Made by a program: the position numbers and the translations under genes. Shown piece after piece: positions 33,312-61,665 of a DNA stretch of 64,000 bases. The number at the start of each line of letters is the position of its first letter. Position 1 is the stretch's first letter. Under the pieces are notes generated by a model. It worked only from the letters and a program-made list of their open reading frames with translations. It ran no database searches and was not told where the DNA came from. The stretch is from a virus (taxonomy: Duplodnaviria; Caudoviricetes): positions 189,748-253,747 of the IMG/VR virus record IMGVR_UViG_3300011868_000001, one strand, 5' to 3'.

Positions 33312-33597
33312 CGAAGTGCTTCTTCAGGGCATCTTCGATCAGGTGGTACGTTAGCATAGTGGGCTCGACCACCCGCACAGGCAGGTAGTCGAACTTCACG
33401 CCGTCGTCGTGCATGAAACGGTAGTAACCTTCAGCCTTGATCAGCGCCTTGGCTTGTTCGACACTGACGCCGTCGCTAAAGCGCGCCAGTTCCCAGTGGA
33501 TGCCGTACTTGGTCTGCCGGCGGAAGAAGAAATGACCATCAGCATCGTGCAGGTCGTTGAGGGTTTGTTCATGGGTGTAGCGATGAGCAATTTTCAT
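33304..33597 (-). CDS. Hypothetical protein
   Basis: 97-aa ORF with GGAG RBS. Confidence 0.72.
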   Translation of the reverse strand: MKIAHRYTHEQTLNDLHDADGHFFFRRQTKYGIHWELARFSDGVSVEQAKALIKAEGYYRFMHDDGVKFDYLPVRVVEPTMLTYHLIEDALKKHFGE

Positions 33598-33627
33598 GGC
33601 GTACTCCGATCGTACTGGAGAGAAGGG

Positions 33628-33882
33628 TCAACCCAGATAGGTCATCATGTCGTTGTGGAACTGCTCGCCCAACTCCGGATGGCGTTGAGTGACTTGCATG
33701 CACTTGACAAAGGTGCCCATCGGGGTGCGGTAGTAGAAGTCTTTCAGGAATTGAACCACCGGGATCTTCTTGACATTGATCAGGGCTGCCGAGACGAACA
33801 TTGGCTCGCCCTTGACATCGATCTCAGTGTAGAAGGGGAATTCCATCATTGCGCCAATGGCGCTCACGTTCATGTTAGTCAT
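33628..33882 (-). CDS. Hypothetical protein
   Basis: 84-aa ORF with GGAGG RBS. Confidence 0.72.
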   Translation of the reverse strand: MTNMNVSAIGAMMEFPFYTEIDVKGEPMFVSAALINVKKIPVVQFLKDFYYRTPMGTFVKCMQVTQRHPELGEQFHNDMMTYLG

Positions 33883-33966
33883 GCTGATGCCTCCATTGGC
33901 ATGTTGGGGTAAGACAAGTTAGATCACGTAGAGGCTCTTGGGTAAGAGCCTCCAGGTTGATACAAC

Positions 33967-34071
33967 TTAGCTGTTCAGAACCTTCTGACGCAGCTTGGAG
34001 TGGTTGTATTTATCGAGGACGATGTTGGCCACGACGATGACAGCAACGGCGGTAACGACACGTGCAAACAT
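33967..34071 (-). CDS. Small membrane peptide (34 aa)
   Basis: MFARVVTAVAVIVVANIVLDKYNHSKLRQKVLNS; TAAGGAG RBS. Confidence 0.6.
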   Translation of the reverse strand: MFARVVTAVAVIVVANIVLDKYNHSKLRQKVLNS

Positions 34072-34240
34072 GGTAAAGCTCCTTAAGCTTAAGGGGATGA
34101 TGGGGGCCAGTTGCCTAGCCCCGGATGGATCACTTGTTGCTGGTCAGGATGCTGAAGATCTTGACCAGGTCTTCGCCGGACAGCGAACCGTTCGGTATCA
34201 CTTCGCAGAGCAGGTAGATTATTCTTCCTACTCACTGGTA

Positions 34241-34258
34241 CTATGTATCGTTGAAATA
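34241..34258 (-). promoter_or_regulatory. Putative early promoter heading the small-gene operon
   Basis: Minus strand TATTTCAACGATACATAG, just after a terminator. Confidence 0.45.
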
Positions 34259-34282
34259 TTTTCGAATCGAATTCGAGCCGAC

Positions 34283-34335
34283 AAAAAAAGACCCTCCTAC
34301 AAGAGTGCCCGTTCTGAGGAGGCACTCTTGTAGGA
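34283..34335 (-). terminator. Intrinsic terminator
   Basis: TCCTACAAGAGTGCC...GGCACTCTTGTAGGA stem, with a U-tract on the minus strand. Confidence 0.65.
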
Positions 34336-34407
34336 ACTGGCGGCACCAGCATGGGTCAAGGGGAGCAGGAGAGGGAGCTCCGATGCTAAACTCGTGTAGA
34401 CTCGATG

Positions 34408-34575
34408 CTATCGTTTAACTGGTTTGTCTTGCGGCGGTAGCTGAACCACAAGGGCCTTGGAGGGACTGACGGCATCGCCTAATAACCGCCGTACCAGGGG
34501 CGGTAAAGACGATGTGGATTCGACATCGGGCGTGGTATGATAACGCCGCGGCGGAACAGAAATAGCATCGTTCAT
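34408..34575 (-). CDS. Small Pro-rich protein (55 aa)
   Basis: MNDAISVPPRRYHTTPDV...; AAGGA RBS; lies downstream of structured element copy 1. Confidence 0.45.
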   Translation of the reverse strand: MNDAISVPPRRYHTTPDVESTSSLPPLVRRLLGDAVSPSKALVVQLPPQDKPVKR

Positions 34576-34604
34576 GGGTGAATCCTTCCAGTCGGAATAT
34601 TGGT

Positions 34605-34674
34605 CAGCCAGGGGCGATGGCCGATTGCCTATCGCACGCCTGAAGCTGTCCTAGGAGATTTGGTACCTTCTCCT
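34605..34674 (-). ncRNA. Structured two-hairpin element, copy 1
   Basis: AGGAGA-AGGUACCAAA-UCUCCU, then CAGC..CAGG..GCGAU-A-GGC-AAUCG-GCC-AUCGC..CCUG-GCUG; upstream GTAAAAAATAAC...TATA. Confidence 0.6.
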
Positions 34675-34721
34675 ATACTAGAGGTGAGCTTTGTTATTTT
34701 TTACCATTTACCCCATCAAAC

Positions 34722-34745
34722 AAAAAAAGAAGGAGGTCATCCTCC
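34722..34745 (-). terminator. Intrinsic terminator after element copy 2
   Basis: GGAGG-ATGA-CCTCC-TTCTTTTTTT on the minus strand. Confidence 0.65.
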
Positions 34746-34766
34746 ATTAAGTGAGGCGGCATAGAT

Positions 34767-34840
34767 GGCAGTCGGAGGCGATGGCCGATTGCCTATCGCT
34801 GCTCCGATGCTGCCCAGGGAATGTGTGGTACCTGTTCCCT
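34767..34840 (-). ncRNA. Structured two-hairpin element, copy 2 (stand-alone sRNA candidate)
   Basis: AGGGAA-CAGGUACCACACA-UUCCCU, then GGCAG-CA-UCGGAG-CA-GCGAU-A-GGC-AAUCG-GCC-AUCGC-CUCCGA-CUGCC; has its own promoter-like motif and terminator. Confidence 0.65.
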
Positions 34841-34843
34841 ATA

Positions 34844-34996
34844 TTAGATGTGGTCTTGGTTATTTTTTACGATTGTGTCTCGATCCTCGTCGATCTCGTG
34901 GTCATCGTACGTGATCGTCGCCAAAGGTTCAGGTTCTGAAGACGGCTCTGGTGGATACTGCATGATCAGTTGCAGGAAAGGATCGAGGGTGGTCAT
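34844..34996 (-). CDS. Possible small acidic protein (50 aa)
   Basis: MTTLDPFLQLIMQYPPEPSSEPEP...; follows the 35006 stop. Confidence 0.4.
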   Translation of the reverse strand: MTTLDPFLQLIMQYPPEPSSEPEPLATITYDDHEIDEDRDTIVKNNQDHI

Positions 34997-35005
34997 GGGG
35001 CTGCC

Positions 35006-35701
35006 TTAATCGAGCGCGTAGAGTGGAATGAGGTATTCGTGCGACATGTGTTCATCATGCATGCTGCCAAAGGCTACGCGGGCCTTACCGAACAGCGAGA
35101 GCTTGATATAGACGTGGTCAGCGCCTGAGACTGCCAGCTCCTTGCGATGTAACAAGGGTGTAAAGGCCTTGACAATCCGCTTGAGGTTGAATTCCTCCTG
35201 AATGGGAATACCGTCTTGATGCAATGGAATGATATCCATCAGATGCAAAGTGTCATCGTGATATTGCAGTGTCAACTGCGCGATGCCCCAGGCTTCAAGC
35301 ATGTCTGCCATGGCCACGATGGTCTTAGTCAGGTCATCTGTATTGTCCAGGATACGGCCCTTGTCCACCGGATGATCGGGCATCAGGGTAATCGCCACGT
35401 CATCATCGCGATTAGCGCCGATAAGTTTGCGCACTTCGCTGATCTCAACCAACCCCGAATGTTTAAGTTCATGCAGGCGACTGACTTTAGCCTGGTCAAC
35501 CAGCCCCTGTGTGATGATTCGATGGATATTGATCCGTGCTTCAAGCAACTCTGGCAGTTCTTGCAGATGTGGGCTCAGGCCCGGCTCCAGATGTCCGACA
35601 AACCCCAGATAGCCGTGCTCGGTCTCATCGGCCCCGAGGACAACGAAATGGCTGTCGATGCCTGGATCAGGATCGATATTGACGAACATCAATTGCGGCA
35701 T
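35006..35701 (-). CDS. Hypothetical protein
   Basis: 231 aa from MPQLMF with AAGGAG RBS; element copy 3 lies in its 5' region. Confidence 0.72.
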   Translation of the reverse strand: MPQLMFVNIDPDPGIDSHFVVLGADETEHGYLGFVGHLEPGLSPHLQELPELLEARINIHRIITQGLVDQAKVSRLHELKHSGLVEISEVRKLIGANRDDDVAITLMPDHPVDKGRILDNTDDLTKTIVAMADMLEAWGIAQLTLQYHDDTLHLMDIIPLHQDGIPIQEEFNLKRIVKAFTPLLHRKELAVSGADHVYIKLSLFGKARVAFGSMHDEHMSHEYLIPLYALD

Positions 35702-35751
35702 GTAGACACACTCCTTGGTTGGGGTAGACAAACGGCCGACTGACATAGGGC

Positions 35752-35824
35752 CATAGCCCGAGGGCGATGGCTATTGCCTATCGCACGCTCGGGGCTATGT
35801 AAGGGCATGGGTACCTGTCCCTTA
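35752..35824 (-). ncRNA. Structured two-hairpin element, copy 3
   Basis: AAGGG-ACAGGUACCCAUG-CCCUU, then CAUAGCCC-C-GAG..GCGAU-A-GGC-AAUA-GCC-AUCGC-C-CUC-GGGCUAUG; upstream GTAAAAAACTAC...TATA. Confidence 0.6.
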
Positions 35825-35902
35825 TACCATAATCCATGCCGGTAGTTTTTTACGATTTTACATCCTTGTAACTTAAAGGACGCGGTATCTAAGACAAAGA
35901 AG

Positions 35903-36547
35903 TTATCTGCGGTTAGGTCTTGCCAAAGCTTCCTCAATGCTCAAACCATCTCTACTAAGACGGCGCGCTAATGTAGACACCAAGATGTTACGTTCTTTAG
36001 CAAGCTGAGTGATTGTTTTCATCTCACCATCAACAAGGAACCGTTTGTTGGATCGTTTGTTGTTAGCTTGTTCTTCGCGAGTCGCCCAGCGACAATTGCC
36101 CGGCTCATAATTACCGTTGTTATCGATGCGCTCTATCGAATGGTCCGGAGATGGTTTTGGTCCCATATCCTCCAGAAATGATTCAAACGAATTTAACCAT
36201 CTGTCGCATACTTGAATCCCTCGACCACCATAATCGGGATAGGCGTCGGATTCGACATTATGACAACGAACCTTCATGGCGTGCCATGCTCGACATTCAG
36301 GGGTGGTAGAACCACCATGTGTCTTGTTTGATTTACCTAGACGAGCTACAGACTCACGATGAAGACATCCGCACGATCTAGTCCCATTTTCTCGTCTAAG
36401 AGCAGCCCCCGATACAGAAACTGCAGTACCACAGTCACACTCACATACCCACTTAATGCCGCCAGAAGACGTGCGTAGGCTAGAACGAAGTACAACTAAT
36501 AGTCTTCCGAACCGTTTACCGGTCAAATCTATCACTTCTCTCATCAT
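35903..36547 (-). CDS. HNH-type homing endonuclease
   Basis: DLTGKRFGRL, WVCECDCG, RSCGC, YGGRGIQVCDRW, SIERIDNNGNYEPGNCRW. Confidence 0.82.
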   Translation of the reverse strand: MMREVIDLTGKRFGRLLVVLRSSLRTSSGGIKWVCECDCGTAVSVSGAALRRENGTRSCGCLHRESVARLGKSNKTHGGSTTPECRAWHAMKVRCHNVESDAYPDYGGRGIQVCDRWLNSFESFLEDMGPKPSPDHSIERIDNNGNYEPGNCRWATREEQANNKRSNKRFLVDGEMKTITQLAKERNILVSTLARRLSRDGLSIEEALARPNRR

Positions 36548-36640
36548 GACACCATTTACAAATTAGCAGTACAGTGACTCACTATCATGTCAATGATGTA
36601 TGATCATTCCGGATTCGAATCGATTTTTTTCCATTGAGCT

Positions 36641-37015
36641 TTACAAGGTTAAACTAAAGCCTTTCGACGCCTTAAGTGTCGTTGACAGATACGCTAAGGT
36701 ATCGGCCTGACCCTTGCTAGGCGTGTACACTTCAATCAGGTCCAATCCCCCTTCTGGGGCGACCTTAAGCTCATGGATAGTCCACGCTCCATCTAGCACC
36801 ATGTACAGGTGCTCGTGGTCGTCCGAGACCATGACTTCATAGACCCATCCCGTCTCTTGGTCACCACTCTTGGCCAAGATAGGCAATAATCGCAGGTCTC
36901 GTTCGCAGTTGTTGATAACGCGCAGCACCGAGTCTACAGCCGTGGGGCACTGAACCTCCTGCCAAGCTGTAGCGTCGTACGAGAGTTTAACTGTGTCCAT
37001 TCCATGTTTCCTCAT
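36641..37015 (-). CDS. Hypothetical protein
   Basis: 124-aa ORF; may start at the internal MDTVKL. Confidence 0.65.
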   Translation of the reverse strand: MRKHGMDTVKLSYDATAWQEVQCPTAVDSVLRVINNCERDLRLLPILAKSGDQETGWVYEVMVSDDHEHLYMVLDGAWTIHELKVAPEGGLDLIEVYTPSKGQADTLAYLSTTLKASKGFSLTL

Positions 37016-38950: not shown

Positions 38951-41900
38951 TTACTTAAGCTTAGGTGGTTCGATGTCTGGAAGCTCCAGATCATCTTCAG
39001 CCTCTTCAGCTTCTTTCTTTTGCTTTTCAGCATCCTTTTCGATTTCGTTAGTATCGATCTCTTCCTGCTCCTCTTCTTCCGGTTCTTGCTCGGAAGGTTC
39101 GGCATCAGGTTCTGGAGGGGTTACTTCCTCCTCCTGCGTTTCAGGTTCTTCCTCCACGTCCAACTCTTCAGTCGGGGTATCGGTCGACTCTTCTACTTCA
39201 GGGATCGTTACCTCCTCAGACTCTTCTTCAACCTCTGGTACTTCAGCGGTTTCAGGTTCGTCTGCCTGCTCTTCTTCAGTAGGCACTTCTGGCTCTTCAG
39301 TTGCAGCAGGTTCTTCTACTTCAGGCTCTTCAGCAGGTTCGGCGTCAGGTGCCTCAGGGACATCGACTTCAGCTGCCTGAGTATCGTCGGTCGAGACCTC
39401 GTCATCAACGGAAGCGACATCGAAGGTGTCTTCCGCATCAGTAACGATTTCACTGTCCGTTGAGTCCTCGGTTACTTCAGCCTCACCCCCTTCGACTTCA
39501 GTCTCTGCCGGGACATCGTCCAGGCCATCAAGGTCACCACCTTCAGCATCGAGTGCCTCGGTTTCACCTTCTGGGTTATCCAGACCGCTCAGGTCATCGC
39601 CCCCTTCCAGATCACCACCCTCGAGCTCACCGCCTTCACCACCTAAGCCATCATCCATGTCTGTCGACCCACCCTTAGCTTCTTCCAGCGCTTGCTTGCT
39701 TTGGGCGATCTTCTCAGCTGCCTTAGCACGACGCTTGGCTGCCTTCAGGACTTTCTTGATGTAGTCAGACAGGGCATTGTTCAGGCCATCCAGATGGTTG
39801 CCAGCCGCTTCCAGCAGATCGAACGCCGGTGCACCTTCCTCTTCCGAGACAGTGTTGAACACATCCAGTTCCGGCATGATGTTGTTGTTACGCAGCCAGC
39901 GACGCTGGAACTCAGCCTTGACCACAGCCTTGACGTTCGGCAATACCTCTTCCATGCCAATGCCAGTATCGGTGGCAAACATCTCCTCGCTCATGTAGGC
40001 ATCGATGACCTTATCCAGTGCGTCACTGTAGGCTTCGAAGGCTTCCGTAGACTTCTTGATGTCACCAACTTCAGGCGATGGCAGCTCGACGAACAGGGCT
40101 TCGATAAATTCATAGATGAACGTATCGACCTTCTCCTCGTCAGACAGCTTGGCGTCCTTGGCAATCTCATCTGGCAGGAACTTGATGTTGGCCCTGACTA
40201 CTTCACGCATCTCAGTCAGGAACACACCAGAGTTCAGTACGTAACGGCGCACGATCTCGGTCAGGAAGGGTTCAAACTTCTCCTGGTTCTGGATCACTCG
40301 CTTGAGCAGCATCAGGTTGTTCTGTACGACCGTGGTCGCAAAGTCCGTCTGATTGATGCCTTCCATCAGCTCCGGGCTCAGACCAAACATCTGGATGTGA
40401 CGCCTGCGCATCATCTCTTCGAGTTCAGTATCCACCGGTTTACTGGTGCCATCACGCTGCCCTACGTTGAACTTGGTTTCCGGATAACGGGTGTTACCGG
40501 TCACCACCACGTTCACGCCATGGTTCTGGATTTGATCTGCCAGTCCCAATGGATGGGTCGATCCAACGATCCTGCTGAAGCCTTGCGAATTGACCTTGGC
40601 GTGTTCTGCGAGCATGAACTCGACTGTCTCCACCGGGTTCTCATCTTCAGGGTCCAGCTCGATCTCGATGGTCTTGCCGCCCACGGCGTTATTGATGGTT
40701 GCCAGGGTGTTGGCCAGCATCAGTGCTGCACGGATCGAACCGAGGATCTTACCGTCTTCCAAGACCGACTTGCCCACACCGAATTCGTTATAGTCGAACG
40801 CAATGTAGGACATCAGTTCAGCCGGAACGAACAGCATGGTGGTGCGCTGCCCTTTCAGGTGACGAGCCAGCATGATGCGATTGATGTTCTCAGTCTTGCC
40901 CAGCTGATAGTTACCCGACAGAGCACCCGAGCGCAGGCGACTCAGCAGATCAACCTCAACGGCCTCGGAGTGAATCCGACTCATCTCATCGATGATTTCG
41001 TTGTTGATTCCACCCATACCTTCCATGCCACGACGCGCCTGTGCCAGGATCTGGCTGGAGTAACCATCGGCACTGCTCATCTGCGAACGGATGTCATCGT
41101 AATAGCTAGTCTGATCGGCTACACTGATGGGGTTGCCATCGATGTCGAGCAGGACGTAGTATCCGATGTGTTCCGCAGGGTTGCCCGGCACATGAATCGG
41201 GATCACCGACTCTGACGGCAGATGGATCACCAGCGGATGACCAAAGGTCTCTTGACCAGTTTGCAGATGGGTCATTACTGGCTGGACGGGAATGTGCTTG
41301 TAGCGCCGCTTGCTGTACAGACTCTTCTCGATGGCCGCCAGGTTACGCTGTGCGTTGACGTCACCGTTCTGCGCCCGACTCTCCAACGAAGCACGCTGAT
41401 GCAGTCGACCACCGTAGATGCGCCGCACTGCAATCTTGCGCCGGGTGTCGATCACCATGGGACGCTTAAGGATGTTGAGGTTGTCCGATACCTCAATTGT
41501 CGGCCCTTGCTCGGTGATGCGCTTCTGAAGCACATTGGCCAAGTCTTTCATGGCTTCTTGAGAGCCGTCATCGCTCGACAGCGATTCAAAACTGATTTTG
41601 ATCTTGCTGACGTCGACGTCCCGCACGTAACTGTTGTCACGCGAGTAGGTCAGGCTTTCAAACGACACGCCGGTGTAGGAGTCCACCCGCTGCTTGGGAT
41701 CGTTGGCAGGATTGCCCAGGATGCCCCAGGGTACATACCGACCGGATGAATCGGTTTCTTCTTGCAGGTGACCGTCAAGAATGTTGATGGCCGATTCCAT
41801 CGACACGCCAGAATAGTTGTCGGCGTTGATGATTCGGTCAATCGACGACTCCGGCATAATGAGCACTGGGTAGGACCCAGTTTCAAACATAACGTCGTTC

Positions 41901-61635: not shown

Positions 61636-61665
61636 ATACAGGGAGGGCCTGAGCCCTCCCTGTAT
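61636..61665 (-). terminator. Hairpin (CATA...TATG family)
   Basis: CATACAGGGAGGGC-CTGA-GCCCTCCCTGTATG. Confidence 0.65.

Follow-up and report, generated by a model that had tools for sequence, protein, structure and literature searches.

The DNA analysed here (the window) is a 64,000-nt stretch, positions 189,748 to 253,747 of the virus record IMGVR_UViG_3300011868_000001, and represents the final 64 kb of that 253.7-kb, 96%-complete record. Its minus strand carries three copies of an element of about 85 bases that would be transcribed as two adjoining hairpins, and these are all the copies in the 253.7-kb genome. An earlier sequence-only reading had described three minus-strand copies, each with two hairpins, a GGUACC loop and an upstream box at a similar spacing, and had put its copies 1 and 3 ahead of open reading frames (ORFs). 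Its copies 1, 2 and 3 (A, B and C below) are present where it had placed them, and both A and C precede ORFs with Shine-Dalgarno (SD) sequences. The exact core GCGATAGGCAAT and the exact box GTAAAAAAYWAC each occurred at only these three sites in the window, and nowhere else in the genome. From copy C to copy A, the features of the locus are as follows.

35842 to 35853, minus strand: promoter box of copy C, GTAAAAAACTAC, A-rich and followed by TAC as in the phiKZ middle motif (PMC4666361, PMC8244752)
35821 to 35826, minus strand: start-site box of copy C, TATAAG; predicted transcription start (+1) at about 35823, from the 15-nt spacing and the -22/-24 rule
35801 to 35823, minus strand: first hairpin (P1) of copy C, AAGGG.C/G.CCCUU, with AGGUACC in its loop (fold and alignment)
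35752 to 35799, minus strand: second hairpin (P2) of copy C, with the bulged-A apical part GCGAU-A-GGC-AAUA-GCC-AUCGC (fold and alignment)
35735 to 35751, minus strand: single-stranded tail of copy C (CCUAUGUCAGUC...), conserved in alignments
35006 to 35701, minus strand: cargo of copy C, a 231-aa (amino acid) clade-restricted ORFan starting MPQLMF after AAGGAG
34844 to 34996, minus strand: 50-aa ORF running at its 3' end into the copy B promoter box
34859 to 34870, minus strand: promoter box of copy B, GTAAAAAATAAC
34838 to 34843, minus strand: start-site box of copy B, TATAGG; predicted +1 at about 34840
34816 to 34840, minus strand: P1 of copy B, AGGGAA/UUCCCU, with AGGUACC in its loop (fold and alignment)
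34767 to 34814, minus strand: P2 of copy B (fold and alignment)
34750 to 34766, minus strand: tail of copy B (AUCUAUGCCGCCUCAC), from alignments
34722 to 34745, minus strand: intrinsic terminator after copy B, GGAGG-AUGA-CCUCC followed by UUCUUUUUUU, predicting an RNA of about 119 nt from 34840
34693 to 34704, minus strand: promoter box of copy A, GTAAAAAATAAC
34672 to 34677, minus strand: start-site box of copy A, TATAGG; predicted +1 at 34674-34672
34653 to 34674, minus strand: P1 of copy A, AGGAGA/UCUCCU, with the loop AGGUACCAAA (fold and alignment)
34603 to 34651, minus strand: P2 of copy A (fold and alignment)
34590 to 34602, minus strand: tail of copy A (CAAUAUUCCGACU), running into the SD sequence GGAAGGA
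34408 to 34575, minus strand: 55-aa small ORF with the core LVRRLLxDAV, behind the element in 8/8 genomes
34283 to 34334, minus strand: strong terminator closing the A unit, a 14-bp stem CCUACAAGAGUGCC/GGCACUCUUGUAGG followed by U7 (read from the sequence)

The module order is the same in each copy: the box GTAAAAAA(T/C)(A/T)AC, 15 nt, TATA(G/A)G, P1, 1-2 nt, P2 and a tail. P1 is short, with a loop made of A-GGUACC plus 3-6 variable nt, and P2 is a long, bulged, irregular hairpin topped by GCGAU-A-GGC-(AAUCG/AAUA)-GCC-AUCGC. The conserved single-stranded tail 3' of P2, (C)UAU(G/U)(C/U)C, had not been listed in the earlier description.

The genome encodes homologues of the phiKZ nuclear-shell protein (chimallin) and of the PhuZ tubulin, and because it does so, the phage is, on gene content, a nucleus-forming, phiKZ-like jumbo phage. 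A diverged protein resembling the beta subunit of multisubunit RNA polymerase (RNAP) is also encoded. The closest named relative is the cultured Pseudomonas aeruginosa phage pPa_SNUABM_DT01 (DT01), whose virion protein shares 73% aa identity and which has been reported to carry gene sets for both a virion and a non-virion RNAP (vRNAP and nvRNAP). Relatives were gathered by a pattern scan of viral contigs, by fetching syntenic loci through the gene of the virion protein 2-4 kb upstream of the element locus, and by nhmmer together with a covariance model. The family so assembled comprises 18 full copies in 8 related phage genomes, 1-3 per genome and at one shared locus throughout, distributed as follows.

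G000 (this genome): 3 copies
G001 (locus L012): 3 copies
G002 (locus L013): 3 copies
G005 (locus L014): 3 copies
Contig of locus L017: 2 copies within the 19.6 kb searched
DT01, G003 and G004: 1 copy each

Two cut copies were found besides, on the short contigs L005 and L006. DT01 was the sole match of copy A in a blastn search, a megablast search of the locus against phages gave no match, and the covariance model matched nothing in phiKZ, 201phi2-1, EL or Noxifer, nor in Xanthomonas RTH11, Xanthomonas Xoo-sp14, Ralstonia RP12 or Burkholderia FLC9. Six metagenome-contig matches to a loose pattern (L018-L023), none of which fitted the covariance model, were discarded as chance, as was the viral-scan match L004, which sits in coding sequence. 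Among public sequencing runs, 20 of the 23 listed carry part of the stretch, mostly from wastewater; all are contigs and probably DNA. Four of these runs were aligned and contained the locus with a few variants, and as contigs they give no starts, ends or strand. In two wastewater runs (low-depth contigs), an RNA-strand G>A change at 35814 turns GGUACC into GAUACC in copy C, which would be the sole variant of the hexamer seen.

When folded singly, the three copies gave z scores of -3.1, -3.3 and -3.5 against shuffled sequences, and RNAalifold detected changes on both sides in 13 of 21 pairs. In a covariance-model-fitted alignment of the 18 copies from 8 phages, standard pairs filled 94.4% of 414 cells, whereas only 33-44% of cells were paired when the partners were slid by 1-3 columns. 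Both-sided (double compensatory) changes were present in 14 of 23 pairs versus 0-3 in the slid controls, and none of 500 column shuffles matched the observed values. Since the 18 rows represent three paralogue groups from few genomes, the independent events are fewer than the cells; compensatory changes were found between the paralogue groups as well as within them. The compensatory covariation first claimed from this genome's three copies therefore extends to the 18-copy alignment. The core had also been called invariant, which holds across the copies of this genome only: in DT01, G003 and G004, GCGAU/AUCGC becomes GCGGU/ACCGC, and in two B copies the apical GGC/GCC becomes GAC/GUC, with compensation in both cases. 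A search of Rfam 15 with cmscan over 33500-37000, using permissive filters, returned three chance-level matches (E 3.7-7.9), all of them off the elements. With a covariance model built, covariation far above chance and no match in Rfam 15, the proposed noncoding RNA (ncRNA) family has gained comparative support, and these alignments indicate that a covarying two-hairpin RNA family not in Rfam is real and new. Two further structural ideas were dropped. Pairing of the P1 loop with the tail or the P2 loop as a pseudoknot came, by eye, to only 4 bp including wobbles and was lost in type A. For mimicry of a CRISPR repeat (Racr-like), a weak test by eye showed no resemblance to the I-F, I-E and I-C repeats of P. 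aeruginosa.

Nearly all swaps in the alignment are full Watson-Crick changes, and G-U pairs occupy 3 of 414 cells, as U-G on the sense strand. Both DNA strands could consequently fold, and the element might instead act as DNA, either as a hairpin or cruciform or as an operator (for example, a signal for recombination or replication, or a site for a repressor immediately past the start). GGTACC and GCGAT...ATCGC are indeed palindromic, and the copies recombine with each other (see below). A double-stranded operator would, however, have no need of 23 covarying pairs of variable sequence. The copies also always lie in a single orientation, between the promoter-like motif and an SD/ATG or a terminator, the sense strand is the one with the three U-G cells, and the recombination junction falls in the tail and not in the hairpins. 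GGTACC, considered as a genome-wide signal, was rejected with 70 occurrences observed and 70 expected. Action at the level of DNA is thus very improbable in our judgement.

What is conserved and what drifts differ along the element. Sequence is preserved in the P1 loop AGGUACC, in the bulged-A apical hairpin of P2 and in the short 3' tail, whereas drift is seen in the stems and in the adjacent genes; the hexamer GGUACC, which is self-complementary and purine-flanked, is invariant in 18/18 copies. Type A RNA is 73-92% identical across genomes, compared with 54-79% (nt) and 31-80% (aa) for the adjoining small ORF, and type C RNA is 85% identical, compared with 64-65% (nt) and 45-46% (aa) for its ORF. 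The copies cluster in alignments by sub-type (A, B or C) across genomes, which suggests that the three paralogues are older than the divergence of these phages and that each has been kept since.

The sub-types differ in what they lead. In 8/8 genomes, type A or the single copy is followed by an orthologous ORF of 55-65 aa that has the core L-V-R-R-x-L-x-D-A/S, and in all eight the SD sequence and ATG of this ORF lie 20-47 nt past P2. No family was found for the small protein in Pfam and PHROG searches. Type C leads an ORFan of 231-238 aa in four genomes; the 231-aa protein had no Pfam or PHROG family and no atlas neighbour, its relatives being confined to 4 clade-restricted clusters. Type B is followed by a terminator, with no convincing ORF, in three genomes (G000, L012 and L014), and its orthologue in L013 leads an ORF of about 140 aa. 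In L017, type C is followed by a terminator, and the single-copy genomes (DT01, G003 and G004) have the leader form only. Because the sub-type present in all 8 genomes leads one small gene, and the free form is not the conserved state, the element would primarily be a promoter-leader cassette, that is, a 5' cis leader.

The cargo between the copies varies among genomes, and one rearrangement could be followed. The close relatives L017 and L012 align collinearly (97%) through copy C to ...CCTCACCTAAGG, after which some 980 nt comprising both ORFs and copy B are missing from L017; the L017 sequence picks up again at the U-run of the B terminator. The word TCACCTAA(A)GG stands after both C and B, and the L017 deletion ends in these homologous tails. 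This deletion between C and B and the varying cargo show that the copies recombine with each other, shedding or swapping cargo, and that 'free' forms arise in this way. Promoter-early stem-loop (PeSL) elements are mobile regulatory cassettes of T4-type phages that mediate shuffling (PMC2839356, PMC4122927). The likeness lies in repeated promoter and stem-loop modules around variable small ORFs and in recombination between copies, here the C/B deletion of L017. The present element is not homologous to these cassettes and differs in having a phage middle-type promoter followed by a two-hairpin transcribed leader with conserved loops, and in having just 1-3 copies at one locus; no sigma70-like site was found at the copies. 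In a PeSL, by contrast, the terminator stem-loop reportedly comes first and a host sigma70 early promoter follows it.

Copy 2 (B) had been proposed as a free small RNA (sRNA) of about 120 nt. The anatomy of a terminated RNA of about 119 nt stands, and a terminator within about 250 nt of the predicted start, the criterion for premature-termination ncRNAs, is found at copy B and not at A or C. As a general form of the family, the proposal fared less well, the orthologue in L013 leading an ORF and the free form of L017 having arisen by deletion. Copy B would accordingly be read from its sequence as a cargo-less or attenuated version of the leader. A 22-codon frame (34700-34768, minus strand) runs from an AUG in the tail of copy B through the terminator to a TAA inside the promoter box of copy A. 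It is 69 nt long in three genomes (this one, L012 and L014) though the terminator stems differ, and is probably a by-product of conserved spacing. Attenuation through a leader peptide encoded by this frame was rejected, as the frame has no SD sequence, type A lacks its AUG and the phage nucleus is expected to keep ribosomes out. Sequestration of the SD sequence by the tail was likewise dropped, the UUCC/GGAA hairpin being possible, by eye, in some type A copies only and not in general.

The same features of copy B bear on a role in trans, in which the RNA would serve as a decoy for a host or phage protein, as the earlier reading had suggested with a host defence or regulatory protein in mind, or would form dimers through its palindromic GGUACC loops. 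Copy B has a promoter, a fold, a terminator and no convincing ORF in G000, L012 and L014, and short RNAs derived from 5' untranslated regions (5'UTRs) are abundant in phiKZ-type phages. The invariant, purine-flanked, self-complementary hexamer would form a duplex of -8.2 kcal/mol, between those of the HIV-1 dimerization initiation site (DIS) hexamers (-7.9 and -10.9). HIV-1 DIS kissing loops present a purine-flanked self-complementary hexamer in a hairpin loop, and the P1 hexamer is alike in these respects and in its comparable duplex energy; the P1 loop is larger (10-13 nt), and the hexamer is predicted to be partly paired in several copies. The predicted probability that all six GGUACC bases are unpaired spans 0.00-0.93 among copies and is 0.00-0.07 in several B copies, where the hexamer would be mostly paired. 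Moreover, the free form is not the conserved state, DT01, G003 and G004 hold the leader form alone, a low-depth wastewater variant reads GAUACC in copy C, and an invariant hexamer allows no covariation. We regard a function in trans as decidedly unlikely.

The upstream boxes point to the class of promoter involved. Two descriptions of the phiKZ middle promoter have been published, one as the motif AAanTTACc centred at about -24 (PMC4666361) and the other as an A-rich repeat plus TACT with its centre at -22 (PMC8244752). The boxes AAAAATAAC, AAAAACTACC, AAAAAATAC and AAATAAATACT account for 18/18 copies, lie at a fixed 15 nt from T(A/G)TA(G/A)G and fit both descriptions. Under the -22/-24 rule, +1 falls in all three copies within 2 nt of the A in T(A/G)TA|GG, the base where pairing in P1 starts, and transcription from the copies would begin at that base or no more than 2 nt away. 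In DT01 (MW735835) this start-site box lies at 41391-41395. The resemblance to the phiKZ middle-promoter motif suggested earlier is thereby borne out in silico, by the fit of the boxes and by a spacing that puts +1 on P1. A T7-type promoter (TATAGGGA-like start) was considered and dropped in favour of the phiKZ middle motif, given the multisubunit RNAP beta-like gene here and the vRNAP and nvRNAP of DT01; a search for a T7-like RNAP (PF00940) was empty, but its control was silent too, making it uninformative.

The same bipartite motif occurs 5' of the chimallin homologue and of a 118-aa ORF (139229-), and the box by itself precedes a tRNA-like gene. The phiKZ shell gene PHIKZ054 is likewise under a middle-type promoter (PMC8244752), and a tRNA of 201phi2-1 is transcribed as middle. 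The chimallin homologue (G000:C1:128422-130610, minus strand; L029) has a leader of about 257 nt behind this promoter class; the leader opens with the 5'-terminal hairpin GGAG-AUGUG-CUCC, continues with a second hairpin, carries none of the conserved motifs of the family and gave no match to the covariance model. The tRNA-like gene (G000:C1:97791-97861, minus strand; L028:592-662) lies outside the window, just 3' of a GTAAAAAAGTAC box. It scored 41.2 bits against the Rfam tRNA model, above the gathering score, while aragorn found no tRNA in the genome; its acceptor, D and T arms are normal, and its anticodon arm is only GGCC-GUA-GGCC, with a 3-nt loop.

With P1 beginning at the predicted +1 and leaving zero unpaired 5' bases, the element could be a generic stability or processing device, with P1 merely shielding the 5' terminus, P2 serving for cleavage by RNase III or RNase E or as a stabiliser, and no dedicated partner. 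The chimallin leader, of the same promoter class, also opens with a 5'-terminal hairpin, and P2, an irregular helix of about 18 bp containing internal loops, is shaped broadly like phage RNase III sites, such as those of the R1.1 type in T7 mRNAs. Left unexplained would be the strict sequence conservation of the P1 hexamer, the bulged-A hairpin and the tail despite varying stems, and the chimallin leader has none of these motifs and is not matched by the model. We consider this account unlikely.

The position of the element at the predicted start also recalls the putL and putR antiterminator RNAs of phage HK022, which are paralogous two-stem RNAs of about 70-85 nt (PMC9378689). Architecture and placement agree in that two bulged stem-loops, 1-2 nt apart, lie at or near the transcription start just downstream of a promoter, and paralogous copies of similar sequence stand behind different promoters. 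By analogy, the nascent leader, alone or together with a factor, would bind the phage RNAP that is transcribing it and make that enzyme resist pausing and termination, and the units would be read through the weak terminator after B and stop at the long-stem terminator after the small ORF. The two terminators suit this scheme, that 20 nt after copy B having a 5-bp stem and that closing the A unit a 14-bp stem; long stems reportedly withstand processive antitermination (PMC10325885). An RNA-only mechanism would also suit transcription in a phage nucleus, uncoupled from ribosomes. The likeness is nevertheless one of description, no sequence relation to put being apparent. Whereas put targets the zinc-binding domain of the host RNAP beta' subunit, the polymerase here, judged by promoter position, would be a non-canonical phage enzyme. 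Internal terminators are absent from units A and C, the A unit being one small gene and then a terminator, and only one unit has a terminator directly downstream of the element. Antitermination of this kind strikes us as an unlikely function.

Our tentatively preferred explanation, held with slightly less than even confidence, is that the element is a clade-specific, factor-binding cis-regulatory 5' leader on a middle-type promoter. The phage's own RNAP of the middle class, working inside the phage nucleus without ribosomes, would start no more than 2 nt from the first base of P1, and given such a start P1 would be a 5'-terminal hairpin that protects the transcript against 5'-end-dependent decay. 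The invariant loop, the bulged-A hairpin and the tail would form a sequence-specific platform for a single trans-acting factor, most likely a phage protein; that the loop hexamer, the bulged-A hairpin and the tail are fixed and the stems are free argues for recognition by a specific factor and not for a generic hairpin. Once bound, the factor would govern how stable the downstream message is or how well it is translated, and a genome's two or three units would thereby be regulated together as a small set. With a weak terminator ending it after about 119 nt, copy B may titrate the factor or be read through into unit A. The coat-protein operators of MS2, Qbeta and PP7 consist of a short stem interrupted by one bulged A, above which a 3-bp apical stem carries a small loop that contains A and is conserved in sequence. 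The apical hairpin of P2 is like them in shape only, and differs in being embedded in a longer helix.

Several points weigh against a factor-binding leader. G-U pairs are so scarce that the pairing pattern by itself cannot separate an RNA hairpin from a DNA hairpin, and the transcription starts, the end point of the copy B RNA and expression itself are predictions from the DNA. The small protein that is always linked is not obviously RNA-binding, and the 231-aa cargo is an ORFan. Copy B with its terminator is kept in G000, L012 and L014, and this free RNA could have a function of its own. The leader might alternatively be a recognition tag particular to nucleus-forming phages, with copy B tuning the level of free factor. 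In one version of such a tag, the nascent RNA would reprogram the non-canonical phage RNAP as a put-like, protein-free antiterminator; in another, it would label a few middle transcripts so that they are, for example, exported or protected at the phage nucleus. We know of no elongation control for the non-canonical phage RNAP, and we hold a tag of either sort to be rather improbable.

Short structured RNAs are known from related phages. phiKZ has 17 5'UTR-derived sRNA candidates and 201phi2-1 has 11 sRNAs, of which sRNA005 is conserved and lies upstream of the gp182/gp277 tail gene, and some of the short structured RNAs of the two phages are conserved among genera (PMC10914365, PMC11512511). 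The present family resembles them in that a phage-RNAP promoter is immediately followed by a structured RNA that is terminated in less than 250 nt or read into a gene, and in its conservation among relatives. It is not homologous to them, the covariance model being silent in both phages, and it differs in being multi-copy and paralogous (1-3 per genome), with invariant loops and demonstrated covariation, and in being known from sequence alone. The general kind, a 5'UTR-derived phage ncRNA in a promoter and stem-loop cassette, is therefore already known and this family is new, with comparative support much stronger than that for most such candidates.

The middle-type box is distinct from two other promoter-like classes of the genome, one AT-rich and early-type, the other TATG and late-type. 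An AT-rich motif of about 35 nt, ATTCGATTCGAAATATTTTCAACGATACATAGTA, occurs in about 10 highly conserved intergenic copies, all on the minus strand, including 34244-34275 in the window and, for example, G000:C1 22737, 92889, 107302, 144463, 161086 and 164688. Words like ATTCGATTCGAAATATTTTCAACGATACATAGTA stand at equivalent places in DT01, and the motif is probably the early (virion RNAP) promoter class of the clade. Palindromic terminator hairpins of the form CATACAGGGAGGGC-TTCG-GCCCTCCCTGTATG, with TATG flanks on both strands resembling the phiKZ late promoter, occur in the window at about 9245 and at 61647-61654, and in the genome at 9740, 22765, 43060, 68708, 86102 and 148793. These look like bidirectional terminator/promoter composites.

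The gene immediately upstream of copy C encodes an HNH homing-type endonuclease (35903-36547, minus strand; phrog_374, E 2e-75). The 30 nt 5' of copy C are common to L012 and L017 and different in L013 and L014, and the HNH insertion of this genome is, judging by these flanks, probably present in L012 and L017 only. Several 6-bp palindromes are rare in the genome: GGATCC (0), TCTAGA (0), GCTAGC (7), CATATG (8), GGGCCC (13) and GAGCTC (17), versus 53-92 expected. Counts so far below expectation for six palindromes suggest restriction-site avoidance.

If the element is only a stabilising leader, it would be an ordinary addition to the growing set of phage 5'UTR RNAs. As an example outside the T4 group, it may illustrate how promoter-leader cassettes drive the gain and loss of accessory genes, and its analysis yields an in-silico map of three promoter classes for an unstudied clade of jumbo phages. 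The GGUACC loop, the bulged A and the tail are clear mutational targets, and the presence of the element in the cultured P. aeruginosa phage DT01 makes direct testing possible. The element would represent a compact, strongly constrained RNA handle placed directly on middle-type promoters, and as such it may bear on elongation control, RNA stability, the fate of nuclear transcripts and middle-promoter recognition in phiKZ-type phages.

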